Positions 4,186 to 64,000 of a stretch of 64,000 nt of DNA are shown here, piece by piece. The DNA is from Deltaproteobacteria bacterium (GTDB taxonomy: Bacteria; Desulfobacterota; Binatia; Binatales; Binataceae), in contig PMOH01000316.1 in the NCBI GenBank assembly GCA_003161515.1, positions 1,210-65,209 of the forward strand. The letters are read 5' to 3'. The notes below the pieces were generated by a model that worked only from the letters and a program-made list of their open reading frames with translations, was not told the origin of the DNA and made no database searches. Positions within the stretch are counted from its first letter, which is position 1. Each line of letters starts with the position of its first letter. Both the position numbers and the translations under genes were made by a program.

Positions 4186-4485
4186 CGAGATTCGTGTGGA
4201 TTGCGGTATTGAGGGTTGCGGGCGTCCATTCTATGCTTTGGATTTATGCAACAAACATTGGGCGCGCCCACGCGGTCAGCCTCATGTCCCTGCTCAGTAT
4301 TTTCTTCGCATCATGTGGTATTTGGGCCGGTGCGCCCGACATCTCAGTGTGCGTCGGCGGGCAGCATCAGGGCCGTAATTCATGGCAGCCGCTCGTATAT
4401 GTCTGTTCGAATTGGGATTCCAAACCGTAGTGCTCGCATTCGGGGAGCGCTTGGTGTATGACTCTCGAAACGGAGGACGGGTTTT

Positions 4486-5163: not shown

Positions 5164-5168
5164 GCCAT

Positions 5169-5465
5169 ATGGGAAAGAAGAGCACGCTTGAGCATCCGGC
5201 CGTCGGCAGGCATCGCACGGGCAACGGCTATGCGGCCATCGCTTCATCTGCTGTTAAGGAGACGCGCGAGCGCTGCCAGCGCTACTTCGCCCACTGCGAA
5301 AAATGCGCGCGCTGTAAGAAGGCGGGGCCGGGTAAGCATTTCTGGAACAAGCGTTCTTGGATGTGCCCGGTCGGCTGGCTCCTCTTCATCGCCTGGTACG
5401 GCGAGCGCGAGTACGAGGCCGCGACTGCGATGGCCCGGCGGAAAATAGTATCTGCCAGTGATTGA
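5169..5465 (+). CDS. hypothetical Cys-rich small protein
   Basis: 98 aa, with CQRYFAHCEKCARCKK and a later CPVGW. A possible zinc-binding protein. Confidence 0.3.
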   Translation: MGKKSTLEHPAVGRHRTGNGYAAIASSAVKETRERCQRYFAHCEKCARCKKAGPGKHFWNKRSWMCPVGWLLFIAWYGEREYEAATAMARRKIVSASD

Positions 5466-5501
5466 CACTATGACCGACAGCGAGTAATAACTGTCGGTCA
5501 T

Positions 5502-5822
5502 ATGAGCCAACTAACTCACTGTCCTAGCTGCGGCGACAAGATCATGCCGGACCCGGCTGACTTCAAGGAAACCCGCACCGCCGCCGGATTGACTCAGCGC
5601 GATATGGCCAAGCTGCTCGGCGTCAAGGCCAGCCACGTTGCTTATCTCGAGAGTGGCCTGCGCCATCCGAGCGGAGAACTGATCCTGAAGTTCAACGCTG
5701 TCCGCGACAAGCTCGCCGCGCGCACCGAGCGCAAGGCCGTGCGCACGCTGAAGCAAGTGCATAAACGAATGCAGCAACAGAATAAGCGGCGGCCGAAGTC
5801 TAAAGTCAAAAAGGCGGCTTAA
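5502..5822 (+). CDS. XRE-family HTH transcriptional regulator with N-terminal zinc ribbon
   Basis: CPSCGDK ribbon, then a classic XRE HTH (LTQRDMAKLLGVKASHVAYLESGLRHPS) and a basic tail. Confidence 0.5.
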   Translation: MSQLTHCPSCGDKIMPDPADFKETRTAAGLTQRDMAKLLGVKASHVAYLESGLRHPSGELILKFNAVRDKLAARTERKAVRTLKQVHKRMQQQNKRRPKSKVKKAA

Positions 5823-5825
5823 CTG

Positions 5826-6290
5826 ATGCCGACCGTGAACATCCCGCCTTGGCTGCGAAAACTCAAACAGAGCTGGTGGTTTCAACTGATCGTCCAGCCT
5901 TTCGTAGTCGCGGCGATGCCGGTCTTATATCTGTCGTCGAACGGGTTTGCTGACATCACATCTAACTCCATCAAGGCCGCCGCGATCGCCGGTGGATCGT
6001 CACTCTACTCCGCATACCAGAAGGGCTTTAACGACCCATCGTACAATCCATCGGGGACGGACAATCAGCAAATCGCCGAAGTCGTGAAAGCCGACGCCGC
6101 CAACTCGCCGGTTGCCGTCGTTCCAGTCTCATCGCCGCAAGTGCGCGAGCGGATTCGTGATGTGGTAGACTCGGGCGCTCCCGTGGCCGTGGTGACGCAA
6201 CCGACTCTCGCGCTGAGTGACGCGATGCAAAAAGCGAACGCGGATAGCAGCGTGCCGACAACCGCATCGATAGCGAATAAGCCATCGTGA
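5826..6290 (+). CDS. membrane protein
   Basis: N-terminal transmembrane segment (WWFQLIVQPFVVAAMPVLYL). Function unknown. Confidence 0.4.
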   Translation: MPTVNIPPWLRKLKQSWWFQLIVQPFVVAAMPVLYLSSNGFADITSNSIKAAAIAGGSSLYSAYQKGFNDPSYNPSGTDNQQIAEVVKADAANSPVAVVPVSSPQVRERIRDVVDSGAPVAVVTQPTLALSDAMQKANADSSVPTTASIANKPS

Positions 6291-6465
6291 GGCGAGTCGC
6301 GCTTATCGCGTTCTGGTTCCTCTACACAGTCGGCGGCGTCCCCGATAAGGCCGGTCCCTTCGCTTCTCCGATCCGCTGCCAGCATTTTATGGAAGCATTT
6401 CTCGCCAACGACCCAACTTACCAGATACTTGTTACCAAACTTCGTTTCTCGGACGGAGAGACAAA

Positions 6466-6936
6466 ATGACCCCGGAACAGCAGGAGAGGACGATGCAGAC
6501 ACCGCCGTACGAAGAGCGTTTCGATAACGAATACTGGCGCATCAAGTCGATCACGATAATATGGGCGTCCTTCTGGGTGATGGTATTCCTCCTGGGACTG
6601 CTAGTGATCGTATTCTTCAGCGGTTGCGCCACGATCGAGTTGGACTGCCCGACGACTGGGGGCGAGACCATCGCGGTTGGCGGTAGCACCGTCGGCAATC
6701 AGATCGTGGCGCTAGGTATCCTGGCGGCCCAAGGCGCGATGAAGTCGGGTGGCCTGGCGGCGCGTGAAGGAGCGACAGCGGCCGCCCCACCGCCGGTGAT
6801 GCACGTACACTATTCGTACGTTCCGATATTCGGATCCGACTATGTGTCATGCCAGGCGACGGGAGGCGGAGCGCCAGCGCCGATTCCCGTGGCGGTTATG
6901 AGCATGCCTGCGAACACGACGACGACGACTCACTGA
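6466..6936 (+). CDS. membrane protein
   Basis: Transmembrane segment IIWASFWVMVFLLGLLVIVFF followed by a Gly/Ala-rich region and a Thr-rich C-terminus. Confidence 0.4.
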   Translation: MTPEQQERTMQTPPYEERFDNEYWRIKSITIIWASFWVMVFLLGLLVIVFFSGCATIELDCPTTGGETIAVGGSTVGNQIVALGILAAQGAMKSGGLAAREGATAAAPPPVMHVHYSYVPIFGSDYVSCQATGGGAPAPIPVAVMSMPANTTTTTH

Positions 6937-7113
6937 TAGTCGGGTGAAAAAGAAACCGAAGGCGCCGAAGAAGCTCACGGTTGCGCAACGGCTCGCTGCC
7001 CTTGAACGAGTAGCGCACGACCCGAAGGACGTAACAGACAGGTTCCTTAAAATAGAGAAGCGGATTGCTGCCCTCGATAACGGCTATCGCAACTCAGGTC
7101 TAGGATTAGGTCG

Positions 7114-7623
7114 ATGATCATTGACATCGGCGACGCCATCGTGGTGCTCGGAGATTCCGCGCTAAGTTGGGCCATCAGCAAAATTACCGGGCCAGTTTCT
7201 CATATTGGCTTAGTAACGAAGGTTGTGCCGGTCGTCGAGGTCACGCAGGCGCTCGGCGACGGCATCAAGACTCTCACGCTGCCCGAGACGATGGCGACCG
7301 CGCGCTACGGCTACTGTCTGCACGACAACCTCTTCCCGCTGGCCGATCGCCAAAAAATGGTCGCTTGGGGCTTGAAGCAACTCGGAACTCCGTACGCATT
7401 TGCGGATCTGGCGCTCGAGGCCATCGACGCGCTCACCGGAAGCGAGAAGGCCAGCATTTTCTTCGATCAAGACGGCGCCGATATTTGCAGCCAGTATTTT
7501 TCGCTCGCGGCGATCCAAGTCGGGCGGTCTTGCGGTATCACGCCGCGCAAGGCGACTCCCTCGGACTGGCTTCATTATTCTCTGGCACAGACGAGCTGGT
7601 CGACGCAGCCGATCGCGAAGTAA
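7114..7623 (+). CDS. possible permuted papain-fold (YiiX/NlpC-P60-like) hydrolase
   Basis: 169 aa. The layout resembles the YiiX/DUF830 family (SHIGLV ... C..H). This is weak, by-eye similarity only. Confidence 0.3.
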   Translation: MIIDIGDAIVVLGDSALSWAISKITGPVSHIGLVTKVVPVVEVTQALGDGIKTLTLPETMATARYGYCLHDNLFPLADRQKMVAWGLKQLGTPYAFADLALEAIDALTGSEKASIFFDQDGADICSQYFSLAAIQVGRSCGITPRKATPSDWLHYSLAQTSWSTQPIAK

Positions 7624-7633
7624 GGGAAAGCGG

Positions 7634-8923: not shown

Positions 8924-9808
8924 ATGACGCGTTTTAAGCTGGGGCAATTGCCGCCCGAACCAGATCCTAAAGCCAAGCTGCTCAAGAACTATCTCGATCG
9001 CAAGGCGATCACACCCCCGGCGACCGAACCGATCGACATGAGCAAGTACGCGGCGAAGTACGACTATGTGATGACTGCCATGATGGCTAACGGGCCTGAC
9101 CCGGTCGCGCCGCTAAAAATCGCGCCGTTCGGAGTTGGCGACTGCGTATTCGCAGCAGCGGTACGCTTCGCTGCCCTTGAAGGGCTGAGCCGGGGGCGTG
9201 TCCTGTTCAAGAACGCGGCTGATATGTGTACCGCCGCGCTCGATGGATACGCGAGCACCGGTTGGGACATCAACCAGACCGACTCGCAGGGCAACAACCC
9301 GACTGACCAAGGCACGATCCCGAACCGCGCTTTCAAGTGGCTCCAGACCAAGGGCTTGCTGTGCTCGAATGGTTCGCGCCACAAGTTCGGCCCGATGCTG
9401 CAGGTCAATCCCCTCGACTTCGCGGAAGTCATCATCGCGATGAATATCGCCCAAGGTATCATGATCGGGGTCAACTTCCCGGCTGCCTGGGACAACTCGC
9501 CGATATGGGACGTGACCAACACGCCACTCGAAGGTGGACACGAGATCCCCGGCTACTCGGACCTGAAGCTGACGACCAGCGGTATCCAGATCGACACTTG
9601 GGGCAACGCGGCGCCGGGGCCGCGCATCATTACGCCGGGTGGTCTCGCGCAGCAATGCAACCAACTCACGGTCATTATCGATCCGCTGGAGTTCGGATTC
9701 GGGCGCCACGGCAAGAAGGCCAACGGAAAGCGCCGGCGCGGGCGGAACATCGAGGGCTTCAACCATGCTCAGTGGCTCGCGGATGTTGCGGCTGACGGCG
9801 GATTTTAG
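8924..9808 (+). CDS. hypothetical protein, possible papain-like peptidase
   Basis: 294 aa. It has a GDCVFAAA Cys-containing motif and a downstream GGHEIPGY, which could be a Cys/His dyad. Speculative. Confidence 0.3.
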   Translation: MTRFKLGQLPPEPDPKAKLLKNYLDRKAITPPATEPIDMSKYAAKYDYVMTAMMANGPDPVAPLKIAPFGVGDCVFAAAVRFAALEGLSRGRVLFKNAADMCTAALDGYASTGWDINQTDSQGNNPTDQGTIPNRAFKWLQTKGLLCSNGSRHKFGPMLQVNPLDFAEVIIAMNIAQGIMIGVNFPAAWDNSPIWDVTNTPLEGGHEIPGYSDLKLTTSGIQIDTWGNAAPGPRIITPGGLAQQCNQLTVIIDPLEFGFGRHGKKANGKRRRGRNIEGFNHAQWLADVAADGGF

Positions 9809-18051: not shown

Positions 18052-18705
18052 ATGAAAAGCATACCTAGTTGGCTATTGGCACTTTTAATCTTGCTGACAC
18101 CGGTGACGGCTATGCCGCAAAGCGGCTCCTTCACCGCGCGCGGCTACACATCCAGTGATCGGAGTGTAGGCGCCGTACGAAGCGGCAGAATCAGCACGCA
18201 CATCGGTACTCACGCCCATCTAGTTTGTCGCGACCGCAGCGGAAAGGTGGTTTGGACCCGCGACGCCGATAACATGCTGACCACGGTGGGCGCGAATCTA
18301 TATCTGACTGATACGATCGTGAGCGGCGTCTCGTCGCCAACTTGGTACGTCGGACTGCTTTATGGGACGAGCGTCGCGACGTTCGCGACTGCGGATACCA
18401 TGTCGTCGAACGGCTGGGCTACCGGCACCGGCGGTGGGGAAGTTACCGGCACGCAGGTCACCAACTCGACGCGGCCGGCGTTTACCCCAGGCAGCGTTTC
18501 GGCCGGAAGCGTCAGCAATACCGGATCGCCGGCGGTCTTCACCGGCAACGCCACGGTTACCCTTCAGGGCTTTATCTTCGTGAATAATTCGACGCTCGCA
18601 GGCACGACCGGAACTTTGATGGGCGAGGGGACTTTTACTGCCGCGCCGATCGCGGCGGGCTACACCATCACCGTAACGGTGACCGATAACGTAACCCCTG
18701 GTTGA
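18052..18705 (+). CDS. signal-peptide protein (Thr/Gly-rich beta-type)
   Basis: Signal peptide MKSIPSWLLALLILLTPVTA. Start is ATG at 18052 after the scaffold stop. Confidence 0.45.
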   Translation: MKSIPSWLLALLILLTPVTAMPQSGSFTARGYTSSDRSVGAVRSGRISTHIGTHAHLVCRDRSGKVVWTRDADNMLTTVGANLYLTDTIVSGVSSPTWYVGLLYGTSVATFATADTMSSNGWATGTGGGEVTGTQVTNSTRPAFTPGSVSAGSVSNTGSPAVFTGNATVTLQGFIFVNNSTLAGTTGTLMGEGTFTAAPIAAGYTITVTVTDNVTPG

Positions 18706-20696
18706 GAGCTAGCCCGATGCGGCGTTGGGGAATAATCGGCGTTCTGCTTGCGCTGCTCCTGTTTTGGATCGGCAATGCCAGCGCCGGCGTCAAGTTCTTC
18801 AGTGGCTTTGAGACGGGCGATTTTAGCGAATGGTCATCAACCACGGGTTCACCTGGCGTAGTTACATCACCCGTAACACTTGGTGGCTATTCGGAACAAA
18901 CTACTTGGGGCTCGGTAAACTATGCGGTAAGCGGTAGCGTTCTGAGTGGCACAACAGGGGTTTTGCGGTTTTCGTTTAATACCAATGCAGCCTCACCAAC
19001 TACTACCAATCAGATTGTTTTTACTCAGATTTTTAATACCTCCGCTCAGGTTCCTGCGGCAATCCGGCTGCAAACTGACTCGACTGGGAATCTCACTTTC
19101 GGGGTTAGAAGCCTTGCCGGCACTTTAGGAAACTTCACGCTCCAACCCAATACCTGGTACACGATAGAACTAAAGTGTCTGGTCGGAACTACGACGAGCA
19201 ACGGTACGGTCGAAGCACGGGTCAATGGGTCTGTAGTCTTTACAACTAGCTCCACCAATACCGGTACTGTCAATCTGGACCACATATGGCTAGGCCCGAT
19301 GACCAATCCGGGGGGATCGCTAACCGGCCACCTGTGGTTCGACGATGTTATGGTCCGCGACGATCAATATCCCGGCCGCGGTTATTGCATCGCGCGACAA
19401 GGCGTCACTGGTACTCCTACCTATACAGGTTGGACCGCGAATGGCTTGAGTACCGCAGCTTTGAATTGGTCGGAGACGCCCTACAACGCGACCGATAATG
19501 AAAGCACGACTACGGCGTCGACGCCGGAACAGAGCATGCTGATGGGCTCGTTCAACTCCGCGGGATCGGCCTCGGAAGGCAGCGGCGTCCTGACCAGCGC
19601 GGCTACGATCAACGCCGCCAAGACGGCGATGGTCGCTCAGTCCTCTTTCACCACCTCCAAGGCATTACAGATTCTCGATCGCCTCAGCGGCTCAGACACT
19701 CTCACCACCGTCACCGCGACCTCGAGCGACGCCTACTACGACGGCGGAATCTATACTCCTACCTATGCCAACCTGACTTCATCCAGCACCGAGATCGGCG
19801 TCAAGAACACCGGCACTGGAACCGGGACCGCGCGGGTTGAGGATATGTGGGAGATGGTCGATTTCGCATCGACGGTCCCGGTATCGAGCTCGTTCGGCAA
19901 TGGCGGTTCTGTCACGGCTTCGAGAGCGGCGACCGTATCGAAGTCGAGTCCCTTCGGCAACGGCGCGCCTATCACCGGATCGCGTGTCGCAAGCCTCGCG
20001 CGTTCTGCGCCATTTGGCAACGGGGGGATCATCAGTGGAGCGCGCGCGCCCAGCACGCGACCCTCGGGTTCGTTTGGAAATGGAGGCTTGGTCTCAGGCG
20101 CGCGGGCGGCGGCCGTCGCCAAGACCCCCAACTTCGGTAACGGCGGATCGGTCCTAGGATCGAGCGCCGAACAGCTAGCGAGGTCGGGCACCTTGGGCAA
20201 CGGGGGCATTGTCGCGGGTTCTAGATCGGCGTCACTCACGAGGTCCGCCGCATTTGGGAATGGCGGGACGATCTCTGGCCTCATCCATAAATTAGTTGTG
20301 CTATTCGGTTCTTTCGGAAATGGGGGCGGTATGGCAGCAACACGCACGGCCAAAGTTACAAAGTCGGGTTCGTTCGGTCATGGTGGCGTACTTCTGAGTT
20401 CGCGGGCCGTCTCGGTCGCACGGGGAGGCAACTTCGGGAATGGCGGCCTGATCTCAGGGTTGCGCAATCTGTTGGCGCGAATCGTTGCATTCTTCGGCGG
20501 GGGCGGTTCGGTGATTGGGAATGCTACCGCGACCAAGACCCCGACCCCGGTGGCGACCCCGACCCCGGTGGCGCCGATCGTTAATCTGACAATGCCGATC
20601 TATCCGACGGTTTACGAAGACCCCGCGATGTGGCCGACCGTGCCTTTGACAGCGCCGCTTTATCCGAGGATCTATCTTGAAGCGAGGATGCCCTGA
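18702..20696 (+). CDS. signal-peptide protein with about 12 tandem FGNGG repeats
   Basis: Signal peptide ...LLFWIGNASA. The N-terminal roughly 200 aa may be a lectin/LamG-like beta domain. These are followed by about 12 repeats of roughly 17 aa (xS.FGNGGxxxGxRAxSxx) and a TPTPVATPTPVAP tail. Confidence 0.5.
   Translation: MRASPMRRWGIIGVLLALLLFWIGNASAGVKFFSGFETGDFSEWSSTTGSPGVVTSPVTLGGYSEQTTWGSVNYAVSGSVLSGTTGVLRFSFNTNAASPTTTNQIVFTQIFNTSAQVPAAIRLQTDSTGNLTFGVRSLAGTLGNFTLQPNTWYTIELKCLVGTTTSNGTVEARVNGSVVFTTSSTNTGTVNLDHIWLGPMTNPGGSLTGHLWFDDVMVRDDQYPGRGYCIARQGVTGTPTYTGWTANGLSTAALNWSETPYNATDNESTTTASTPEQSMLMGSFNSAGSASEGSGVLTSAATINAAKTAMVAQSSFTTSKALQILDRLSGSDTLTTVTATSSDAYYDGGIYTPTYANLTSSSTEIGVKNTGTGTGTARVEDMWEMVDFASTVPVSSSFGNGGSVTASRAATVSKSSPFGNGAPITGSRVASLARSAPFGNGGIISGARAPSTRPSGSFGNGGLVSGARAAAVAKTPNFGNGGSVLGSSAEQLARSGTLGNGGIVAGSRSASLTRSAAFGNGGTISGLIHKLVVLFGSFGNGGGMAATRTAKVTKSGSFGHGGVLLSSRAVSVARGGNFGNGGLISGLRNLLARIVAFFGGGGSVIGNATATKTPTPVATPTPVAPIVNLTMPIYPTVYEDPAMWPTVPLTAPLYPRIYLEARMP
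19880..20470 (+). repeat. tandem roughly 51-bp coding repeats (FGNGG units)
   Basis: The FGNGG pentapeptide recurs about 12 times at roughly 17-aa spacing in the translation. The DNA periodicity is visible (ttcggcaa(c/t)gg(c/g)g...). Confidence 0.65.
20538..20573 (+). repeat. perfect 18-bp tandem duplication ACCCCGACCCCGGTGGCG x2
   Basis: Seen directly in the sequence. It encodes TPTPVA x2. Confidence 0.8.
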
Positions 20697-52368: not shown

Positions 52369-54021
52369 CTAAGCGGCGTGCCGCTTCACGATAATGCTGT
52401 CTTTCATGCCCTCGACGGCCTTGAAACCATTCTTGCCGTCTTTGTAGAGAAACCCTTTGCCGACCAACTCGTTCAGCGGCGGATAGATGTTCGGCGGTGC
52501 CGTCGAGATCCCTCGCGTCTTGAGCAGACTCAGGGTAGCTCCGCCAGTCTGGAAGCTGTCGAAGAATCCTTCATGGATGAGCAGAGCGCAAGCACCGAGC
52601 AGGGTATCCGAGCGCGCCTCGATGGTATGGCGCTGGACCTCGATATGGATTTCCGACTTCGAAGTGATCAGCTTGAGGATGCCGGGCGCTTCCTGTGTGA
52701 GCCGCGCCTTGACCATCTGATAGATGCGCTCGTCGGTCGGCAGGTTGACGTACTTGTCGGCCACGGTGTCGCCGACCTTGAGCGCTGGCGCGGGCGCGAC
52801 GCGCTGCAGGTCGGCGACGATCTCGCGCATCGCGTCGATCTTTTCTTCGAGCCGCTTATTCTCTTCGCGCAGCAGCGCGTTGCTCGTATCGAGGGCCTTC
52901 GCCTCTGCTTCTGTCACGGTCGATTCCTCCTCGTCCAATTGCTCGTCGATGTGGGCCATCGCCGCCACGCTATCTCGTAGTTCATGCTCCTCGTTAAGAA
53001 AGAACGTCTTGGCCTTAACCGGCGGCTCCGGCAACGGCAGCCCGCCGACGGCTACTTCCTGCGCATGATCTTCATCCAGCCATGCCGGTTGCACGTAGAC
53101 TTTGTGGACCTCGCGCCCGAAGCACGCGAAGAATTCGCCCTTGCCGAGTTGCATCACGTCTTCCGCCTTCGGCTTTCCGACGCCAGCGGGGATATGCGAC
53201 AGCGTGCGCTTGACCTCGTTCATCTCGCGTTGCACGCCGAGAATCCACACCTGGCACTGGCGCACGATGTCTTTCTGTATTCCAGCGAGGTCCTGGCTGT
53301 CCAAGTACAAATAGTTTTTCGATGCGCCGCCCTTGCGAATCAGGCTCTCCGCCGCGAGCATCACCGGGCTGCTGCGCTTCTGCGGCAGCATTTCCCATGC
53401 TTCCGGGATGATCGAGATGACCTCGTTCTCGTTCTCGTAGATCCATTCGAGCACGGAGCGAATCACCAACGCTTGAACCTCCGTCGAGTACGCCGCCAGG
53501 TCCATCACGTTGAGGCCGGTCTCCAGTTTGAGGGTTTTCGTATAAGGCAGTCGATCGATCTGGGGGATGACGATCTTCAGATACTCCGAGAGCTGGAGAT
53601 ACATATCGGCTTCGAAGCCGCGTGCCTGCTTCTTCCCGGTGAGGCGCCTTTCGACATTGTTCAGCACACCGGCGAGATTACGCGCGCCACGCGAAGCCTT
53701 GATGATTGAAGCGCGGATGATGCGGTTCTTCTCCCGCATGGTTGCTTCGATGATGGATTCAACGAAGCGCCAATCAGCGCGTTCTTTGAAGTACGGGGGT
53801 AGGCGATGCCCTTCGAGCAACGACCCTTCCGCGCGCTTTGTAACGAATGCGATCGCCCTTCGACCAGAGCGAGCAATCAAACCTTCGAGTGTGGTCGTCT
53901 TGCCTGAGAGTTGGGTGGCACCTGTAACGACGGTATGGCCGACGGGTATCGCGACAGCCGTCCCGGTGCCAATCTCAAACCCGAGATGTATCCCCCAGAT
54001 CGATCGACTGCTAGCGACCAA
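52369..54021 (-). CDS. P-loop ATPase with coiled-coil and C-terminal domain
   Basis: Walker A (GATQLSGKTTT) and a candidate Walker B (LYLDSQD). There is a central coiled coil. The ORF begins with a TTG at 54021, so the true start may be internal. Confidence 0.45.
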   Translation of the reverse strand: MVASSRSIWGIHLGFEIGTGTAVAIPVGHTVVTGATQLSGKTTTLEGLIARSGRRAIAFVTKRAEGSLLEGHRLPPYFKERADWRFVESIIEATMREKNRIIRASIIKASRGARNLAGVLNNVERRLTGKKQARGFEADMYLQLSEYLKIVIPQIDRLPYTKTLKLETGLNVMDLAAYSTEVQALVIRSVLEWIYENENEVISIIPEAWEMLPQKRSSPVMLAAESLIRKGGASKNYLYLDSQDLAGIQKDIVRQCQVWILGVQREMNEVKRTLSHIPAGVGKPKAEDVMQLGKGEFFACFGREVHKVYVQPAWLDEDHAQEVAVGGLPLPEPPVKAKTFFLNEEHELRDSVAAMAHIDEQLDEEESTVTEAEAKALDTSNALLREENKRLEEKIDAMREIVADLQRVAPAPALKVGDTVADKYVNLPTDERIYQMVKARLTQEAPGILKLITSKSEIHIEVQRHTIEARSDTLLGACALLIHEGFFDSFQTGGATLSLLKTRGISTAPPNIYPPLNELVGKGFLYKDGKNGFKAVEGMKDSIIVKRHAA

Positions 54022-54455: not shown

Positions 54456-55183
54456 CGACACCCGAACTTGTAATGGCAGCAAGTGGCATTCTCTTCGGGG
54501 GCGGGGTGCTATTCGCGGAATTTCGACGACGTATAGTCGACGAGAAACAAGAATCTGCGGATAAGCTCGCGCACGTGAAGGAACTCAACGACGCAAAGTT
54601 AGAAGCGGCGAAAAATCATGCGAATCTGTCGGGCAAACTGGATATGGCGGCTCTCCTACAGAGTGTGCAGTTCCAGCACCTTCAAGGTGTCACCAAAACA
54701 GCCGCCGAATCGCCAGCAACCACCATCGAAGTAGCCAACAACACGATTCAATCCCTAAGCAACCAAGTCAAGGAATTGACGGAATACACTCGCCACGTCA
54801 CACATGATCAATTCCGTCGCTTTGGAGAAGCCGTCCCTAACATTTTGGCCCTAGAACGTGGCGACGGCCATGCATACTGGCGGGACTACGCTGGCGTTCG
54901 GATACTCTATTGCCACTACATCGAGTCGATTAACTATGCCCAAGAGCTGATGGGTTTATTCGGGGCCTCAGCGATCACGGTCACTAGTTGGGAAGACAAT
55001 AGCTACGAAGCACTTAATATTGCTGGCCTCAAATTGCTGATCGCCGATCCGGGCAACCCAACAGACAACAATGTCAAGACAATGGCGCTTCTTCGAGCAG
55101 CGGATATTCAATTTGAAGTCGAAAAGCGGGAGACGGACGCCCCCCTTATCTCAACGTTACGCGTCGGTCGGTGCGCGGGATGA
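54452..55183 (+). CDS. membrane-anchored coiled-coil protein
   Basis: Transmembrane segment (VMAASGILFGGGVLFA) followed by a coiled coil. Local GC is lower, so it could be a moron. Confidence 0.4.
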   Translation: MTTPELVMAASGILFGGGVLFAEFRRRIVDEKQESADKLAHVKELNDAKLEAAKNHANLSGKLDMAALLQSVQFQHLQGVTKTAAESPATTIEVANNTIQSLSNQVKELTEYTRHVTHDQFRRFGEAVPNILALERGDGHAYWRDYAGVRILYCHYIESINYAQELMGLFGASAITVTSWEDNSYEALNIAGLKLLIADPGNPTDNNVKTMALLRAADIQFEVEKRETDAPLISTLRVGRCAG

Positions 55184-56028
55184 ACTATCAGCACCTTCGC
55201 GCACTCGTAGTCAACGACTACGCGATCAACAATCAGCGCTCGGATGTATTGAATGCCCGCCTGAAGCACCTCGACGACGCCTTCGCCTTGTCAACAGGCT
55301 CTATCTCGGCTGTGGATATCCAGTCATATACCGCCGGTAGATTAGCTCAAGGTACAGCCCCCGGAACCGTCAACCAAGAGTTAGCTGCGCTGCGCCGGAT
55401 GTTCAGTCTTGCGGTCAAACTCCGTCTGATCACTCTCGATCAAAAGCCTTGGATTCAACTTCTTCGCTTGCGCAACGCGCGCAAAGGCTTCTTCGAGAAA
55501 GACCAGTACGAGAGTGTCAAACGTGCTCTGCCAGAGCCGTATCGCCCGATCGTCACCACGATGTTCATCACGGGTTGGAGATGCCAAGAAGTTTTGTCCC
55601 GGCAGAAAAAGCATCTCGACCTAGCTAATGGATGGTTGCGGCTCGACCCAGGTGAGACCAAAAATGGCGAGGGCCGCGAGTTTCCGCTGACCCGCGATCT
55701 CCGCGCGTGTCTTACTCCGCAGCTCGCGGAAGTCAAGGCTTTTGAGCATCGCACGGGCAGGATCGTGCCGTGGCTTTTCCACAGGGACGGCGAGCGGATC
55801 TGTGGATTCAGGCGCGCTTGGGAGAACGCTTGCAAGCAGGCCGGCGTGCCGGGGCGGATGCTTCACGACTTCCGGAGAACAGCCGTTCGTAACATGGAGC
55901 GGAAAGGTGTCCCGCGCTCGGCCGCGATGAAGATGGTTGGAATGCTGACTGAGTCGATCTATCGTCGCTACGCGATCGTTGATGAGACTGTGCTGAAGGA
56001 GGCCGGCGCTAAGCTGGATGCATTATGA
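55171..56028 (+). CDS. int: tyrosine recombinase (phage integrase family)
   Basis: Catalytic-domain motifs are present (R in ...TGWRCQEV, LHDFRRT with His/Arg, and a terminal ESIYRRYA with the nucleophilic Tyr). At 285 aa it is short, with a core-binding but no arm-binding domain. Confidence 0.7.
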   Translation: MRGMNYQHLRALVVNDYAINNQRSDVLNARLKHLDDAFALSTGSISAVDIQSYTAGRLAQGTAPGTVNQELAALRRMFSLAVKLRLITLDQKPWIQLLRLRNARKGFFEKDQYESVKRALPEPYRPIVTTMFITGWRCQEVLSRQKKHLDLANGWLRLDPGETKNGEGREFPLTRDLRACLTPQLAEVKAFEHRTGRIVPWLFHRDGERICGFRRAWENACKQAGVPGRMLHDFRRTAVRNMERKGVPRSAAMKMVGMLTESIYRRYAIVDETVLKEAGAKLDAL

Positions 56029-58457: not shown

Positions 58458-58920
58458 AGAGACCTTCAGGCTCTACCAGATCTTTTTGCAGGAGCTCGAT
58501 GCGCGCGACGGTCGCGCTGCCGTGATGGAGATTATCCGATCACCGCGCGAATTCGCGCCTCCGGTCGGAATACTCCTCGACCTCGGCAAACAGTTCGAGA
58601 GGAGACGGCTCGAACATGAATTTTGGCGCGAACGCTGGTACGAGCCCGGCAGCATAGCTTACACACCCGACGGCCAACGATGCGCGGCTGATGCCGATGG
58701 CCATATGCAGCCCGCCCCTGAGCCCGAACCTCCCGCTATAAGCGATCAGCGGCGCGACGAGATAGCTCAACTCGTCGGTCAACTAGCCGAGCAGGCTGAG
58801 CAACCACGAATTCGAGCACGAATTGACGGCGCGGCACGTAACGATGCGCTCCGCCGCGGATTGCGCATTGGCGATATTCTGAGAATCGATCACAAATCCA
58901 AAGGAGAATCGAATCAATGA
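58387..58920 (+). CDS. hypothetical replication-module protein
   Basis: ORF overlapping the end of the initiator gene. Start is ambiguous (58342, 58387 or 58420). Confidence 0.3.
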   Translation: MEANQALALTAMLTAAYPSWASGEETFRLYQIFLQELDARDGRAAVMEIIRSPREFAPPVGILLDLGKQFERRRLEHEFWRERWYEPGSIAYTPDGQRCAADADGHMQPAPEPEPPAISDQRRDEIAQLVGQLAEQAEQPRIRARIDGAARNDALRRGLRIGDILRIDHKSKGESNQ

Positions 58921-59315
58921 GTTGTTCACACGCAGGCTGTACGAACTGCCGAGAGTTGGAAGCGCAAGAAGCGCAAGTTCAGTGGAACGAGACGCTCTGG
59001 GCGCTACGCGCATCGGAGATACTGACGCTGGTGACCCGAGCGTACCACCTTGAACACTTCGACCTGACCGGCCCGCTGCGCACAGCGCATATTGCGAGTG
59101 CGAGACAAATCGCGTGCTATCTTTTGCGACGGCTCACGGGATATAGCTACCCCATGATCGGCGAGATACTGCACCGCGACCACTCGACGATAATTCACGC
59201 GTACAACGTGGTGGCTAAACAGATGGCCATGATGCCGGATCGAAAGCGTGTCATCGACGCGATGGCTTACGCGATCGAGCATCCGGCGGAACAGCAAAGG
59301 CAGGTGGCGGTATGA
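58917..59315 (+). CDS. DnaA domain IV (DnaA C-terminal DNA-binding) homologue, standalone
   Basis: ARQIACYLLRRLTGYSYPMIGEILHRDHSTIIHAYNVVAKQMA reproduces the DnaA-box-binding HTH signature (R.IAMYL.R.LT..S...IG..FGRDHSTV.HA). It has no AAA+ domain. Confidence 0.55.
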   Translation: MSCSHAGCTNCRELEAQEAQVQWNETLWALRASEILTLVTRAYHLEHFDLTGPLRTAHIASARQIACYLLRRLTGYSYPMIGEILHRDHSTIIHAYNVVAKQMAMMPDRKRVIDAMAYAIEHPAEQQRQVAV

Positions 59316-59341
59316 TTCCGAAGGGAGCCCGAGTTTCGAAA

Positions 59342-59364
59342 GGGAATTATTGATTTGAGTCCCT
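59342..59364 (+). repeat. TIR (left, cassette A)
   Basis: GGGAATTATTGATTTGAGTCCCT. Confidence 0.85.
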
Positions 59365-59371
59365 TATTACG

Positions 59372-60025
59372 ATGAAGCCGTATTTTGAAGAGGCGGGGAT
59401 TACGATTTTTCACGGTGACTGCCGCGAAGTGCTCGGAATGTATTCGGGCTTTATCGTTACCGACCCGCCTTACGGTATCGACCATCCGACCGACTATAGG
59501 GCGCGGGGGCGGGGTGCGTTGGCTGAGTGTGCTGATTATCCGCGCGTGGCTGGCGATGCCGAGCCTTTTGAGCCGTCTTTCTTGCTTGACCGACCCTGCG
59601 TGCTATTCGGAGCCAATTACTTCGCTGACAGGCTGCCGCCGTCGTCGGGCTGGCTAGTCTGGGACAAGATGCGCCCACATGGCCTCGACCAAGCGACTGC
59701 GGAACTGGCGTGGTCGAATTTCGTCAAGGGTGTTCGGGTGTTTCGCTATCTCTGGAACGGCATGATCAGGGATGGCAACGAGGCATTAGAGCACCCGACA
59801 CAGAAGCCGGTCGCGCTAATGAAATGGATTCTGGCGCTGAAATGGACGCCTGCGGGGCGGGTAATTGACCCCTTTATGGGCGCAGGCTCGACCCTAATCG
59901 CGGCGAAAGACATGGGGCGCGAGGCTGTCGGCATCGAACTCGAAGAACGGTATTGCGAAATTGCGGCACGGCGATTGAGCCAGTCAGCGATGCAATTCGG
60001 GACGCAAAATGAATCAAGGGACTAA
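59372..60025 (+). CDS. beta-class amino-DNA methyltransferase (N6-adenine or N4-cytosine)
   Basis: Motif IV TDPPYG near the N-terminus and motif I (FMGAGSTLIAAKDMGR) near the C-terminus. This circular permutation defines beta-class N6A/N4C MTases. Confidence 0.7.
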   Translation: MKPYFEEAGITIFHGDCREVLGMYSGFIVTDPPYGIDHPTDYRARGRGALAECADYPRVAGDAEPFEPSFLLDRPCVLFGANYFADRLPPSSGWLVWDKMRPHGLDQATAELAWSNFVKGVRVFRYLWNGMIRDGNEALEHPTQKPVALMKWILALKWTPAGRVIDPFMGAGSTLIAAKDMGREAVGIELEERYCEIAARRLSQSAMQFGTQNESRD

Positions 60026-60218
60026 ACTATATAATTCCCTTTCGAAAGCGGTTGGGGAGTACGACCGCCTGGTCACCGAGATGGTGGGCGTTTCCAATGT
60101 CTTAGTGCGACGCGGCGGCACCTCACGCAAGAATCTGTGGCGGGAAGAATCCCCCGAAGAGGCGATGAAGCGGTTCGGGCAGCCAGCGCCGACGAATCCG
60201 CTGCATGTGAACCGATGA
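60009..60218 (+). CDS. hypothetical small protein (N-terminus encoded by TIR; start doubtful)
   Basis: 69-aa ORF. Its first roughly 13 codons lie in the right TIR and TSD of cassette A. Confidence 0.25.
   Translation: MNQGTKLYNSLSKAVGEYDRLVTEMVGVSNVLVRRGGTSRKNLWREESPEEAMKRFGQPAPTNPLHVNR
60017..60039 (-). repeat. TIR (right, cassette A, degenerate)
   Basis: The reverse complement reads GGGAATTATATAGTTTAGTCCCT. Ends are conserved and the centre has diverged. Confidence 0.6.
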
Positions 60219-60448
60219 CTCTACCTGTCGACCCGAGAGTCCGGCGCTTGGAACCGGAAGTGGTTTCGCCGGAGACCGAACGCGAAGCGCTCCACGTTCG
60301 TTTCCAATTCGACACAATCTACGAACATGGCTGCGGCCTAGCTCTCGGCATCGGTCACATCGAGAGCAGCGACCACAGCTATGCCGTAACGATGCGGCGA
60401 CTAGCCGACGGACGTGTCGAGGTTCTGCACGTCCGGGAGATGCGGTAA
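60215..60448 (+). CDS. hypothetical small protein
   Basis: 77 aa from the ATG at 60215. ATGA overlap upstream and TAATG overlap downstream. Confidence 0.3.
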   Translation: MTLPVDPRVRRLEPEVVSPETEREALHVRFQFDTIYEHGCGLALGIGHIESSDHSYAVTMRRLADGRVEVLHVREMR

Positions 60449-60777
60449 TGGCAATTCGAATCCAGCGGAAGCGCACGCGTGGTTGGAAAGCTCCTGAAGG
60501 CGCTGTCTACGTCGGGCGTCCGACCGAATGGGGGAATCCTTGGACGGTTGGGCTCGTGGCCTGCGGCTGTCGCTCAGCAGGCGAATGCGATCACAATTGC
60601 TTTCGCGTCGAAACCGCCGAAGAGGCCGTCGATATGTACCGTCGGTGGGCGTCCGGTTGGAGCGATGAGAAAAAGCAGCGTTGTCGAGATCAATTGAGTG
60701 GAAAAGATCAGATGGACTGGTGTTCACTCGACAAGCCCTGCCACGCGGACGTGACGTTGGAGATCGCGAACGCATGA
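60448..60777 (+). CDS. DUF4326-family protein
   Basis: RKRTRGWKAPEGAVYVGRPTEWGNPW is the characteristic DUF4326 N-terminal signature. Confidence 0.5.
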   Translation: MAIRIQRKRTRGWKAPEGAVYVGRPTEWGNPWTVGLVACGCRSAGECDHNCFRVETAEEAVDMYRRWASGWSDEKKQRCRDQLSGKDQMDWCSLDKPCHADVTLEIANA

Positions 60778-61355
60778 GAGTCCTGCTAACCCAGAGCGAG
60801 CGCCTGAACTTCTTCGTCGCCAAGCTGACGTATTGGGACCTCACGTTCGAGCCTCGAGGCCTCGCCAGCGTCGAACTCTGTCTCTGCGAAGAGACCGAGA
60901 AAAGAGACCACCGCCTCCGCCGGTCGGCCGGCATGAAACACCTGGCCGAGTGCCCCGCCACGGATAGCGAAATGGAATTCATCGAGCCGCTTTGGGCCCG
61001 ATGCTGCGCGATCGCCATCGTCGGCCGCATCGGATTCATCAAGCACGCGCCGAAGCCTTGGCGAGTCTATTTCCGCGACCTGCTCGATCAGCGCGAGCCG
61101 CGCGCGGCCGCCCTCGAGGACGGCAGGATGCGGATGCTCGCCGTGGGCGCCCGGCTGCAGGGAATCAACGCGAAGTACAACGAGAAAGAGGCGCTGGTGT
61201 TCATGCTCAAGATCGTCGCGACGATCGCGCGCGCCGGCGGCCGCGAAGAGATTCGGGAATTCCTCAACGGGAATCCGGTTCCCGCGTCGATCCGATCGCT
61301 GGGCTACAGAACCATTGTCGACGATCTCTTGCGCGCAATGGAGTTGCCGTCGTGA
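60774..61355 (+). CDS. hypothetical protein
   Basis: 193 aa from the ATG at 60774 (ATGA-coupled). The ORF extends upstream to 60681. Confidence 0.35.
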   Translation: MRVLLTQSERLNFFVAKLTYWDLTFEPRGLASVELCLCEETEKRDHRLRRSAGMKHLAECPATDSEMEFIEPLWARCCAIAIVGRIGFIKHAPKPWRVYFRDLLDQREPRAAALEDGRMRMLAVGARLQGINAKYNEKEALVFMLKIVATIARAGGREEIREFLNGNPVPASIRSLGYRTIVDDLLRAMELPS

Positions 61356-61362
61356 AAGTAAG

Positions 61363-61385
61363 GGGAATTATTGATTTGAGTCCCT
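61363..61385 (+). repeat. TIR (left, cassette B)
   Basis: GGGAATTATTGATTTGAGTCCCT. Confidence 0.85.
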
Positions 61386-61394
61386 CGCCGCACA

Positions 61395-61862
61395 ATGCAA
61401 ATCCGTAGAGCACAACCATGCGAAACGCGAAAACTAAAAGACTGGATCGCAGCGAATCACTACCTGCAATCCGCTCCTCCGGGATTTGTGCATCTCTACG
61501 AGTTCATCGAGGGCAAGGAATTGATCGGCGGGATGATTTTGGGCCGCCCATCCGCGAAGCAATACAACCCCGACAAAATCCTCCAACTTCACCGCGTCTT
61601 TTTCATCGACGATACCGCCCCGAATGTCGAGAGTCAGGGACTTTCCATGATGCGCCGCATGGTTCGGGTTTGGATACCGCAGATTCGCGGTCTCTTGTCC
61701 TATTCCGATCCAAGCATCGGCCACGAAGGGACGATTTACGAGGCCGATATGTGGTGTCCGCTCGGCCTGACCGACGAACACTGGGGCTACGGGTGGAAAA
61801 GCCGCGAAGGACGGCGCGATCAACGGGTCAGTCGCAAGATGCGATGGTTTAGAACGCCATGA
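61395..61862 (+). CDS. hypothetical protein (cargo of cassette B)
   Basis: 155 aa with a hydrophobic-core-like pattern (IAANHYLQSAPPGFVHLYEF ... GGMILGRP). No motif I can assign. The stop overlaps the next start (ATGA). Confidence 0.4.
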   Translation: MQIRRAQPCETRKLKDWIAANHYLQSAPPGFVHLYEFIEGKELIGGMILGRPSAKQYNPDKILQLHRVFFIDDTAPNVESQGLSMMRRMVRVWIPQIRGLLSYSDPSIGHEGTIYEADMWCPLGLTDEHWGYGWKSREGRRDQRVSRKMRWFRTP

Positions 61863-62215
61863 AGGGACTCAAATCAATAATTCCCAAAGTAAGTCTCGGC
61901 GGCGAGAGCGGCAACAAGTACGGCGCGCGCAAGACAAGCTGCGGGAAGCACATCCATGATTCCAATCGCGAAGCTCAACGATGTGCAGAACTGCGGCTCA
62001 TGGAGAAGGGCCGCTTGATCGCTGATTTGATATTCCAGCCAGCGTTTCCCATGTGGTACGGCGACAACCTGATCTGCACTTACGTCGCTGATTTTATGTA
62101 CCACGAGGAAGATGAACTCGTTGTCGAAGACGTGAAGGGTAAAGCCACAGATAGTTACATTATCAAGCGCAAAATGCTCAAGGCATTTTATGGAATCACG
62201 GTGAGGGAGACTTGA
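61859..62215 (+). CDS. DUF1064-family protein (restriction-endonuclease-like fold)
   Basis: NKYGARKTSCGKHIHDSNREAQR ... YVADFMY ... VEDVKGKATDSYIIKRKMLKAFYG matches the DUF1064 pattern. The first 9 codons (MKGLKSIIP) are encoded by the right TIR of cassette B. Confidence 0.5.
   Translation: MKGLKSIIPKVSLGGESGNKYGARKTSCGKHIHDSNREAQRCAELRLMEKGRLIADLIFQPAFPMWYGDNLICTYVADFMYHEEDELVVEDVKGKATDSYIIKRKMLKAFYGITVRET
61863..61885 (-). repeat. TIR (right, cassette B)
   Basis: AGGGACTCAAATCAATAATTCCC, a perfect inverted copy. Confidence 0.85.
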
Positions 62216-62856
62216 ACGTCAGAGATCGCATAATCGGCTTTAGTCGGGTCAGGGCTTCTGAACTTAAGGCCAATCCTTCCAATCCGAGGCAGCACGATGA
62301 GCGCGAGCGCGAGGTCTTTGGCGACCTACTCTCACGGATCGGGTTTGCCGGAGCACTTCTCGCATATCGCAACGCCGACGGCGAACTCGAGCTGGTAGAT
62401 GGCGCGCTACGCAAGGATCTGATGGAGGACCAAGAAGTCCCCGTGCTCGAGACTGACCTGACTCCCGACGAAGCGCGCGAGCTTCTGCTGTTCTTCGATC
62501 GCGTCGCCGGGATGGCGACCTACAATCCGGAGATCACGCTCGAGCTGGTCGAGCGTCTCAACCTGAACGGCGACGCGGCCGCGCTCGCGCACCTCGCCGA
62601 TGAGATGGAGGCGGAGGCGCAGATCGAGAGCATGTCCTCGGAAGCCAATCCGGAGACCGCGGGCGGTACGTCGCAACCAGGTGGTCGGAAGAAGCGCGGC
62701 GAGGATACGGGACCCACGCCGATCAAGGCTGTGATTTCAGTTTTCGAGCTCCAGATAGTGGAACGTGCGCTCAGTGCGACCCAAGAAAAAAATCGCGGGA
62801 CCGCACTCAGCATCATCTGCCAAGCATTTCTCAATTCGATAGGAGAGACGAATTGA
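62212..62856 (+). CDS. ParB-like nuclease domain protein
   Basis: ParB N-terminal domain box (LKANPSNPRQH ... ELVDGALR), then an acidic helical C-terminus. Confidence 0.55.
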   Translation: MNVRDRIIGFSRVRASELKANPSNPRQHDEREREVFGDLLSRIGFAGALLAYRNADGELELVDGALRKDLMEDQEVPVLETDLTPDEARELLLFFDRVAGMATYNPEITLELVERLNLNGDAAALAHLADEMEAEAQIESMSSEANPETAGGTSQPGGRKKRGEDTGPTPIKAVISVFELQIVERALSATQEKNRGTALSIICQAFLNSIGETN

Positions 62857-63053
62857 AAACTCTACGTCCAAAGAAAAAACCAATCTGGGGGATGCTTATC
62901 TATCGCACTACCAGCAAAGGCGTAGACCACATGCCGGAGATCCTGAATCAGATGACCGCCCAAGAGGCTCGGCAAGCGAAGGTCTGCATGGCGGGCGGCA
63001 ACACGATGGTCGTGTTCTACCCGATGCTCAAGAAAGGGGAATTATTGATTTGA
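62853..63053 (+). CDS. hypothetical small protein
   Basis: 66 aa. Its last codons run into the left TIR of cassette C. Confidence 0.3.
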   Translation: MKTLRPKKKPIWGMLIYRTTSKGVDHMPEILNQMTAQEARQAKVCMAGGNTMVVFYPMLKKGELLI

Positions 63054-63059
63054 GTCCCT
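63037..63059 (+). repeat. TIR (left, cassette C)
   Basis: GGGAATTATTGATTTGAGTCCCT. Confidence 0.85.
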
Positions 63060-63076
63060 CAATCAAAAACTCTCTC

Positions 63077-63757
63077 GTTTGGTTAGACCTTTGCTCCGGC
63101 CTAGGTGGCGCGAGTCAGCCGGCGTTGGATCGCGGTTGGAGGGTTATCAGAATCGACCTTGACTCTCGCTTCAGGCCCGACATCGTGGCCGACGTTCGCG
63201 CGCTGCCGCTCAAGGGCTATTGGGAATCTAGGGCGCTCCGCATCGATGTGCTGTGGGCGAGTCCGCCTTGCCAGGATTTTAGCAAACACGGACTGCGTTG
63301 CTTCTATCCGAATCCGCCGGAGCCGGATTTATCAATCGCTAACGCCGTCGGGGCGTTGATCAACCGACTTCAACCGCGTTTCTGGGTGATTGAGAACGTG
63401 TGGGCGGCTCGTCCGTGGTTCACGAAGCTGTTCGGTCAGGTACGCGCCAAGCCGCCAGGCCACGCGCTGTGGTCCAACCTCGCATTCCTGCTTCCGAACA
63501 TCGAGCCGCACAAGAGTTCCAGCGTCCAACTTAAGTCGAGAGGCATCGGAGCGATTCCAGGAAAACCAGGCGATTGGCGCAAGACCTATCGAGGCCTTAG
63601 AGAGAGGCATGCCACCGGAATAAGACCCGTCAAAGCTACGCCGGGGCGCTGGATGGGCAGTCACCACGATATGACGCCAGCGGAAGCAGCCGTAATTCCC
63701 TATCCGATCGGTGAGGCCATCTGCGCAGCGGTGGAGCGAAGGGACTCAAATCAATAA
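63077..63757 (+). CDS. DNA cytosine-5 methyltransferase-like protein (short)
   Basis: Motif I (DLCSGLGG), motif IV (SPPCQDFS, the catalytic Pro-Cys) and motif VI (ENV). It is only about 227-235 aa with no clear motifs IX/X or target-recognition domain. Start is ambiguous (TTG at 63050 inside the TIR, or TTG at 63077). The stop TAA lies inside the right TIR. Confidence 0.5.
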   Translation, partial: VWLDLCSGLGGASQPALDRGWRVIRIDLDSRFRPDIVADVRALPLKGYWESRALRIDVLWASPPCQDFSKHGLRCFYPNPPEPDLSIANAVGALINRLQPRFWVIENVWAARPWFTKLFGQVRAKPPGHALWSNLAFLLPNIEPHKSSSVQLKSRGIGAIPGKPGDWRKTYRGLRERHATGIRPVKATPGRWMGSHHDMTPAEAAVIPYPIGEAICAAVERRDSNQ

Positions 63758-63762
63758 TTCCC
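63740..63762 (-). repeat. TIR (right, cassette C)
   Basis: AGGGACTCAAATCAATAATTCCC. Confidence 0.85.
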
Positions 63763-63795
63763 CAAGAAAGGGGTCAGGTACGAGGGGAGAGAAAA

Positions 63796-64000
63796 TTGAA
63801 AGCACTAACTTTAACGCAGCCGTGGGCTAGCCTTGTGGCCTTGGGGTTAAAACACATCGAGACTAGGAGTTGGAGCACGGGATATCGGGGACCGCTGGCT
63901 ATCCATGCCGCGAAAGGTTTTCCGAACGACTGCAAAGAACTATGTATCGAGGAGCCGTTTCGTTCCGTACTCTTGGTTGCAGGCATCGGCGGGGCAAGCG
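63796..64000 (+). CDS. ASCH-domain protein (partial, runs off the window end)
   Basis: LTLTQPWASLVALGLKHIETRSWSTGYRGPLAIHAA matches the ASCH/PUA-like N-terminal signature. TTG start with a GGGGAGAG RBS. Confidence 0.45.
   Translation, partial: MKALTLTQPWASLVALGLKHIETRSWSTGYRGPLAIHAAKGFPNDCKELCIEEPFRSVLLVAGIGGAS

Follow-up and report, generated by a model that had tools for sequence, protein, structure and literature searches.

A putative IS1595-derived mobile cassette donates a new start codon to a DUF1064 gene of a temperate phage, by what may be a fairly ordinary insertion

Mobile insertion cassettes (MICs) and the passenger-carrying "transporter" insertion sequences (ISs) of the IS1595 family have been defined in PMC3129680, which cites De Palmenaer 2004 and Siguier 2009. 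These are the closest described relatives of three elements, here named cassettes A, B, and C, that lie in a 64,000-nucleotide (nt) stretch of contig PMOH01000316.1 (positions 1,210 to 65,209 of its forward strand; assembly GCA_003161515.1, "Deltaproteobacteria bacterium"), called the window in what follows. The window belongs to a tailed temperate phage with terminase, tail sheath, tape measure, and replication initiator, and our main subject is cassette B, which carries a Mom-like gene, was inserted right behind the start codon of a DUF1064 nuclease gene, and supplied this gene with another start. Like MICs, these cassettes have ends identical to those of an IS, the 8-bp target duplication typical of the family, passenger genes, no transposase, and a presumed mobilization in trans. 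Unlike known MICs, they reside in phage genomes, each holds one gene, trimmed to the codon so as to fill the space from end to end, and the same ends enclose several different DNA-modification cargos. Our literature search found no paper on such MICs in phages or Acidobacteriota.

Transposon-like restriction-modification (R-M) or orphan methylase units with inverted repeats and 8-bp duplications were described by Furuta et al. 2010 (PMC2853133), and they share with the present cassettes the modification genes between inverted repeats, the 8-bp duplication, and an empty site recognized by genome comparison. Those units, however, occur in bacterial chromosomes, often comprise whole R-M systems, and have unique repeats, whereas here we find single, nuclease-free modification genes on a multicopy IS-derived chassis in phages. 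Small non-autonomous elements fused in frame to host genes are also well known, such as the Rickettsia palindromic elements, besides the ERIC, RUP, and BOX elements that lengthen genes at the 5' or 3' end and the Neisseria REP2 that carries a site for ribosome binding as well as an ATG (reviewed in PMC10969869 and PMC3184786). As in those cases, element sequence enters the host protein here, and some of those elements likewise donate 5' extensions or start codons. The differences are that the start donated here is the tail of a cargo gene (ATGA), that the host gene becomes the distal partner of an overlapping pair, and that the exact ancestral allele is available for comparison. Finally, the leader open reading frames (ORFs) of the integron attI1 site, ORF-11 and ORF-18, drive the translation of cassettes that lack their own initiation region (PMC8876359), and they resemble an ORF at 61352-61408 of the window, which has a GGAG 8 nt upstream, spans the insertion boundary, and ends beside a gene start devoid of a Shine-Dalgarno sequence. 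The integron leader, in contrast, is part of the platform and experiments have demonstrated its function, whereas ours is a putative leader that arose from the orphaned start of the disrupted host gene; integron cassettes, moreover, move by site-specific recombination, and these by transposition.

Exact copies of the 23-mer GGGAATTATTGATTTGAGTCCCT number five in the window and zero in dinucleotide shuffles, and these five plus one variant end make up three inverted pairs, the cassettes A, B, and C, each bracketed by a perfect 8-bp direct repeat and each holding one gene that fills the space between the ends almost to the base. Cassette B (61363-61885, 523 bp) consists only of two 23-nt inverted ends and the Mom-like gene, whose ATG, with no Shine-Dalgarno sequence before it, stands only 9 nt past the left inverted end and whose stop abuts the right one. 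A search with the 118-residue DUF1064 protein encoded downstream recovered a cassette-free orthologue, P0001, of 110 amino acids (aa) and beginning MKVSLGG, on contigs L006 and L007 (L-numbers denote contigs throughout). The DNA of these contigs reads ...gccgtcGTGAAAGTAAGtctcggc..., and its flanks are identical to those of the window at 249/249 and 1128/1129 positions (100% and 99.9%). Given that both contigs carry a single AAAGTAAG directly after a GTG, the ancestral DUF1064 gene started at this GTG (61352-61354 of the window), and cassette B was inserted between it and codon 2, cutting DUF1064 off from its GTG and its Shine-Dalgarno sequence. Records of the fused ORFs come from NCBI, Logan, and ENA, and an IMG/VR scan with the DUF1064 protein returned only one relative, 31% identical.

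The initial annotation, made from the sequence alone, had proposed that the insertion supplies the start and first codons of DUF1064 and that cassette-free orthologues should lack the donated N-terminus, and both proposals were borne out by the empty-site alleles. P0001 lacks MKGLKSIIP, starts with MKVSLGGESGNKYG, and is otherwise 100% identical, the fused protein being the ancestral 110 aa with KGLKSIIP inserted after Met1 (MKGLKSIIP+KVSLGG). The coordinates of the overlap between the cargo stop and the DUF1064 ATG also hold, the Mom-DUF1064 pair having by sequence a 4-nt ATGA overlap (TGA 61860-61862, ATG 61859-61861). The further assignment of codons 2-10 entirely to the inverted end and the target duplication is right for codons 3-9, which lie in the inverted end, and has to be amended upstream of them, where the ATG, along with the opening base of codon 2, belongs to the CCA TGA that ends the cargo; codons 10-12 come from the duplicated target. 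An in-frame TAG (61850-61852) lies immediately 5' of ATG 61859, and after this ATG the ORF 61859-62215 has no in-frame ATG, GTG, or TTG until Met49, a start that would cost the protein its invariant K20-L45 region. A complete protein can therefore be made from ATG 61859 only, the later start at Met49 was rejected, and MKGLKSIIPKVSLGG is the N-terminal peptide to be expected if ATG 61859 is used.

On the other side of cassette B, the TGA stop of the upstream host gene (61353-61355) is preserved despite the insertion, and the orphaned GTG, which overlaps this stop as GTGA and has its GGAG at 61340-61343, now heads an 18-codon ORF (MKVRGIIDLSPSPHNANP) that crosses the left inverted end and stops at TAG 61406-61408, 14 nt beyond the Mom ATG. 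When the cassettes are removed in silico, the operon from 58.3 to 64 kb contains about 10 genes chained by ATGA, GTGA, TTGA, or TAATG overlaps, and all three insertions keep this chain of reading frames unbroken. The 4-nt stop/start overlap of Mom and DUF1064 thus has counterparts at nearly all junctions of the operon. No excess of promoters or terminators was seen. A GenBank phage search with 58900-64000 returned only short matches, with about 77% identity to actinophage genes, and there is therefore no related isolate.

The protein that received the extension matches the DUF1064 profile PF06356 over residues 19-111 with 55.2 bits (cutoff 24.7), and the residues K20, D34, S35, E38, D78, E90, D91, and K93, invariant in the homologue alignment, are all present in it. 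The family is labeled as Holliday-junction resolvase in PHROGs (phrog_190), a PDB sequence search with DUF1064 gave nothing significant, and the modeled fold resembles the nucleases Bax1, Hjc, and RecU only weakly (best E 1.9e-3); the protein is predicted to be a PD-(D/E)XK-like nuclease. The N-terminal tail of the homologues varies between 2 and 18 residues in length, and the AlphaFold2 confidence (pLDDT) for residues 1-20 of the fused protein lies below 50; the 8-residue extension thus falls within a length-variable tail that is predicted to be disordered. As for the cargo, it reaches 58.8 bits with the Mom profile PF25680 (cutoff 27.1) and has 88 homologues, mostly of 155 aa, so that by comparison with its close homologues it is a full-length, putative DNA-modification protein.

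Table 1. Positions of cassettes A, B, and C, of the genes they touch, and of two further features, in window coordinates.
Feature	Position	Strand	Basis or remark
Tyrosine integrase	55171-56028		basis for temperate lifestyle
Cassette A with two TTTCGAAA duplications	59334..60047	+	duplications 59334-41 and 60040-47
Cassette A ends	left 59342-59364; right variant end 60017-60039		
Cassette A cargo, N6/N4 DNA methyltransferase	59372-60025		
Orphaned start and first 10 codons of ancestral 66-aa gene	59312..59353	+	P0018, empty site in L023-L025
Re-headed downstream ORF, 69 aa	60009..60218	+	new ATG in 3' end of cargo
Upstream host gene, 193 aa from ATG 60774	60774..61355	+	249/249 identical to L006/L007 over 61114-61362
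Ancestral GTG start of DUF1064, now orphaned, and leader ORF	61352..61408	+	sequence, frame, empty-site allele
Left target-site duplication copy AAAGTAAG, cassette B	61355..61362		single copy in L006/L007
Left terminal inverted repeat GGGAATTATTGATTTGAGTCCCT, cassette B	61363..61385	+	
Mom-family cargo, 155 aa	61395..61862	+	PF25680 58.8 bits, phrog_1384
New DUF1064 ATG	61859..61861	+	last base of cargo Pro codon CCA and TG of TGA (ATGA overlap)
Right terminal inverted repeat, cassette B	61863..61885	-	read as codons 2 (part) to 9 of fused DUF1064
Right target-site duplication copy AAAGTAAG, cassette B	61886..61893		ancestral codons 2-4 of DUF1064
Fused DUF1064 ORF, 118 aa	61859..62215	+	PF06356 55.2 bits, phrog_190, alignment, AlphaFold2 model
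Cassette C with two CAAGAAAG duplications	63029..63770	+	duplications 63029-36 and 63763-70
Cassette C ends	63037-63059 and 63740-63762		
Cassette C cargo, 235-aa C5 DNA methyltransferase	63050-63757		
ATTTTATG intergenic site	6384..6391		empty in window; occupied by identical cassette C in L018

A second gene of the window has been re-headed in a similar manner by cassette A, which split its target gene after codon 10, with ATG 60009 restoring an in-frame ORF in which MNQGTKLYNSL replaces the ancestral MIPKGARV (MNQGTKLYNSL+SKAVGEY), and with the orphaned start at 59312 now heading a 13-codon ORF that stops at a TGA within the left inverted end. The pre-insertion protein could be reconstructed (MIPKGARVSKAVGEY...), and its first 54/54 residues are matched by P0018 (66 aa), which is encoded on L023-L025 directly after a DnaA_C-HTH gene that it overlaps as ATGA; TTTCGAAA occurs once there, in other words the site is empty. 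The initial annotation was correct that this downstream ORF is re-headed and mistaken that its start lies inside the right inverted end, since ATG 60009 stands 8 nt upstream of 60017-60039. This right end differs from GGGAATTATTGATTTGAGTCCCT at four positions; that it is a decayed repeat was considered and rejected, because the variant end is shared with full-length IS copies (L010 1822-1844, L016 148-170, L021 355-377). The canonical and variant ends of cassette A, taken as a pair, match the two different ends of these ISs, and such a cassette might have arisen where a gene lay between two IS copies whose inner ends came to be used. In cassette C, as had been proposed, both the TAA stop (63755-63757) and the TTG start (63050-63052) of the cargo lie by sequence within the inverted ends, this TTG being the only start that keeps motif I of the C5 methyltransferase. 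The TTG overlaps the TGA (63051-63053) of a truncated upstream gene (62853-63053), a stop that is itself inside the left end, and cassette C replaces the last 8 codons of this gene.

No transposase gene was found in the window by tblastn with an IS1595 transposase query. A scan of public contigs with the end sequence yielded full-length elements, 1.57-1.79 kb long, that share these ends and have 8-bp duplications (L010, L014, L015, L016, L021, and L001/L008), two of them in Terriglobales and Acidiferrales genomes; full copies also occur in viral contigs. These elements encode variable passenger ORFs and a transposase of 306-313 aa, with profile scores of 206.6 and 210 bits for NF033547 (cutoff 75), 150.5 bits for PF12762, and 33.5 bits for PF12760; the N-terminal zinc ribbon (PF12760) and the DDE domain (PF12762) by which an IS1595-type transposase is recognized are thus both present. 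Both ends of cassettes B and C match both ends of L014 at 23/23 positions. The end GGGAATTAT would fit ggnnatTAT, the probable end consensus of the ISNwi1 subgroup. Every feature of a MIC that sequence can test, namely the ends, the 8-bp duplications, the empty sites, and the missing transposase, was therefore found (PMC3129680), and in sequence terms the cassettes read as non-autonomous derivatives of the IS1595 family.

The cassettes also appear to have been recently active in transposition, judging from identical copies at different places: 4-5 sites for cassette B and 2 sites for cassette C, including two sites in one phage lineage. Cassette B is 523/523 identical in L020 and L027, with a partial copy in L009 (92/92), each at a different site, and cassette C is 726/726 identical at another site in L018 (1243-1968). 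L018 is a close relative of the window phage, 95.7-100% identical over window positions 3799-7625. With a relaxed scan, related ends were seen in 28 viral contigs, among them mini-cassettes of 263-285 bp, cassettes of 568-736 bp, and passenger-carrying ISs of 2.2 kb, and passenger-carrying full-length relatives are present in L010, L014, L028, L037, and L050. Three further cassettes with the same or related ends (L004 580-1051, L031 2223-2507, and L036 999-1261) hold small ORFs of 136, 77, and 67 aa, each with its own Shine-Dalgarno sequence and with its stop in or touching the right inverted end. A cassette in L035 (5049-5784) keeps the first ~30 transposase codons, and by its sequence would represent another route of origin, the internal deletion of an IS. 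A 1081-bp cassette with a 347-aa C5 methyltransferase (L002 10396-11476, the same as L003 6882-7962, and also in L012 and L017) has no matching target duplication, and a cassette B in L026 (67-589) has one flank from the L020 site and a different other flank; these two cases suggest recombination between cassette copies, or possibly assembly chimeras. In the empty-site relative, L024 3400-4662 is joined to L007 1-150 (window ~61043-61114), the upstream gene being interrupted there by more than 1.2 kb of DNA that has ORFs on its minus strand and encodes the C-terminus of another IS1595-like transposase; the region appears to be a repeated landing place for IS1595-type elements. Long ORFs of 81-485 aa also run from the inverted-end TTG antisense through the transposase in L010 (217-1293), L016, and L014, and, though recurring in three elements, they are probably artefacts of GC-rich DNA.

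With moderate confidence, we favor an account in which a MIC of the IS1595 family, mobilized in trans, recently hit codons 2-4 of DUF1064, the rescue in frame being lucky and then retained by selection. The transposase would be supplied in trans, probably from full-length copies in a Terriglobales host or in co-resident phages, and cassette B would have recently moved into the AT-rich octamer formed by codons 2-4 of DUF1064 in a temperate phage, with duplication of 8 bp. Ribosomes finishing the upstream gene would restart at the orphaned GTG, read the 18-codon leader across the left inverted end, and initiate anew at the Mom ATG in spite of its lacking a Shine-Dalgarno sequence; after the Mom stop they would re-initiate once more at the overlapping DUF1064 ATG, and the expression of DUF1064 would become dependent on Mom translation. 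The in-frame rescue would be a lucky property of cassette B, expected in one phase out of three, rather than a signal evolved in its termini, and it would have been kept because insertions that kill neighboring phage genes are purged.

The target preference is clear, since 9/10 target duplications have at least six A/T, compared with 6.5% of the 8-mers of the window (binomial ~2e-10). AT-rich 8-mers are themselves 2-fold enriched within 30 nt of gene junctions (61/201 vs. 15% of the region), and still the finding that all three insertions of the window (3/3) lie within ~32 nt of a junction has a probability of only ~0.03 from target composition alone, which points to the loss of mid-gene insertions. 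Of the three phases at any cassette end, just one has a start codon to offer, or in some cases two, and at the right ends of A and B it is one of the three that lead outward. In a set of about nine cassette types, A and B alone carry an outward ATG no more than 10 nt from the end, and these are precisely the two cassettes located in the 5' ends of genes, which fits the prediction from survivorship. The survival of tolerable insertions, with the lethal ones purged, would thus explain the pattern best as far as the sequences tell. Around 19 elements, host ORFs called naively in the GC-rich DNA were too noisy for the sites to be classified. L032 was considered as a further gene-start insertion and rejected, being intergenic and beside a terminator-like hairpin.

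Several points weigh against the account that we favor. Translation from ATG 61859 and its coupling to Mom are inferred, and no Shine-Dalgarno sequence precedes this ATG. The two ends of cassette B are predicted to pair as a 23-bp mRNA stem beside ATG 61859, a stem that appears in both the minimum free energy and the centroid structure (z = -3.98) and that could, according to the model, block initiation there unless ribosomes open it; initiation at 61859 would probably need the ribosomes translating the leader and Mom for this purpose. The fused allele was found on only two contigs, the insertion is so recent, its flanks matching the empty allele at 100% and 99.9%, that there may have been no time yet for selection to act on it, and two in-frame rescues out of two are weak statistics (chance P ~0.11).

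Some of these same points would be expected from plain insertional damage, where DUF1064 and the 66-aa gene would be silenced or crippled in a prophage that gathers IS derivatives of its host, the matching frame being a coincidence. We consider this rather unlikely, and it is the alternative that survives best. A temperate phage, as the integrase shows this one to be, resides together with the ISs of its host; the insertions are very recent, the new ATG has the predicted stem alongside and no Shine-Dalgarno sequence, each event has a chance of 1/3 of matching the frame, and the upstream gene of the empty-site relative is itself disrupted by DNA with an IS1595-like transposase fragment, so that the region tolerates insertions. 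Damage alone, however, does not account for three insertions out of three that avoid gene interiors or for two insertions in 5' ends that both fall in the single rescuing phase. The cargo genes, moreover, are co-oriented and intact, of a sort from which a phage can benefit, and the structural and replication modules look intact.

The initial annotation had gone further and read the termini as carriers of translation signals that stitch the cargo into the host operon, and of this reading the donation of a start and N-terminus and the preserved chain of frames hold up, and the evolved terminal signals are not supported. In its full form, with ends and trimmed cargo shaped to carry the stop and start signals of coupled phage operons, we regard it as quite improbable. 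It would explain why the cargo stop lies inside or abuts the right end in A, B, C, the L004 and L002 types, L031, L032, and L036, why two of the three frames that enter the left inverted end are closed within 17 nt, why this end also holds a TTGA stop/start overlap, employed by cassette C, why two of the three frames that leave through the right inverted end stay open, why both 5'-end insertions of the window were rescued in frame, and why the cargo is co-oriented with the upstream host gene in every case examined (A, B, and C in the window, besides L004, L009, L018, and L020). Nevertheless, stop codons are expected in AT-rich 23-mers by composition alone, an outward ATG close to the end is confined to A and B, and the ends are common to transposase-bearing ISs whose own genes make no use of them; given that they are ends of an IS1595-family IS, their sequence is constrained first by the transposase. 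The ATG of cassette B itself is a by-product of the cargo CCA plus TGA rather than a signal of the inverted end, as judged from a transposase-bearing relative (L028) whose 86%-identical Mom gene has the same ACG CCA TGA end 13 nt before the inverted end and from a non-IS Mom homologue of a phage (L029) that ends in CCG TAA, that is, without ATGA. Other copies of cassette B also argue against the reading of evolved signals, since those in L020/L026 and L027 run into short dead-end ORFs unfused to host genes, the L027 copy being out of frame and separating a host ATG from its Shine-Dalgarno sequence. The re-heading of DUF1064 is thus a well-documented but fairly ordinary transposon insertion, and not clearly a purpose-built expression device.

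A broader proposal along the same lines, that the IS1595 single-gene cassettes would be a shared, operon-compatible anti-restriction toolkit of soil phages in which both the ends and the codon-exact trimming were selected, seems to us improbable too. If it were true, a cassette would borrow the ribosomes of the host gene via the leader ORF and pass them to the gene that follows, making it the transposon counterpart of integron cassette expression. Lastly, a chimeric join caused by repeats and mimicking an insertion was rejected as hardly credible: the data are indeed metagenome assemblies, and matching duplications are missing in L026 and at the 1081-bp cassette (L002, L003), but perfect 8-bp duplications and matching empty sites support A and B, the same is true for copies of B and C in independent ENA, Logan, and JGI assemblies, and the fused ORFs come from three sources.

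Elsewhere in the window, a 38-nt inverted repeat, 97% complementary, has its arms (3674-3711 and 9382-9419) 5.7 kb apart within two long ORFs, and a perfect 22-nt inverted repeat (53547-53568 and 53990-54011, 421 nt between the arms) lies within the minus-strand ORF 52369-54021, with no target duplication seen at it. The stretch 19884-20458, in the ORF 18702-20696, contains repeats at multiples of 60 nt (60-240 nt apart), each encoding a Gly-rich motif of the FGNGG type.

The knowledge of transposition or of translation itself is left unchanged by this locus. What is less ordinary is its setting in soil phages of Acidobacteriota, with several modification cargos on one chassis and with the exact ancestral allele at hand. 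Natural before-and-after pairs of this sort are rare: in the same peat metagenomes, one phage gene is seen both with and without a transposon between its start and codon 2, and this pair makes both the replacement of a start codon and termination-reinitiation directly testable. As the sequences indicate, transposase-less IS1595 cassettes would move Mom-like and methyltransferase genes between sites and between temperate phages of Acidobacteriota, and these cargos likely have anti-restriction functions. This cassette traffic would be a route for the exchange of counter-defense among phages that standard annotation does not flag.

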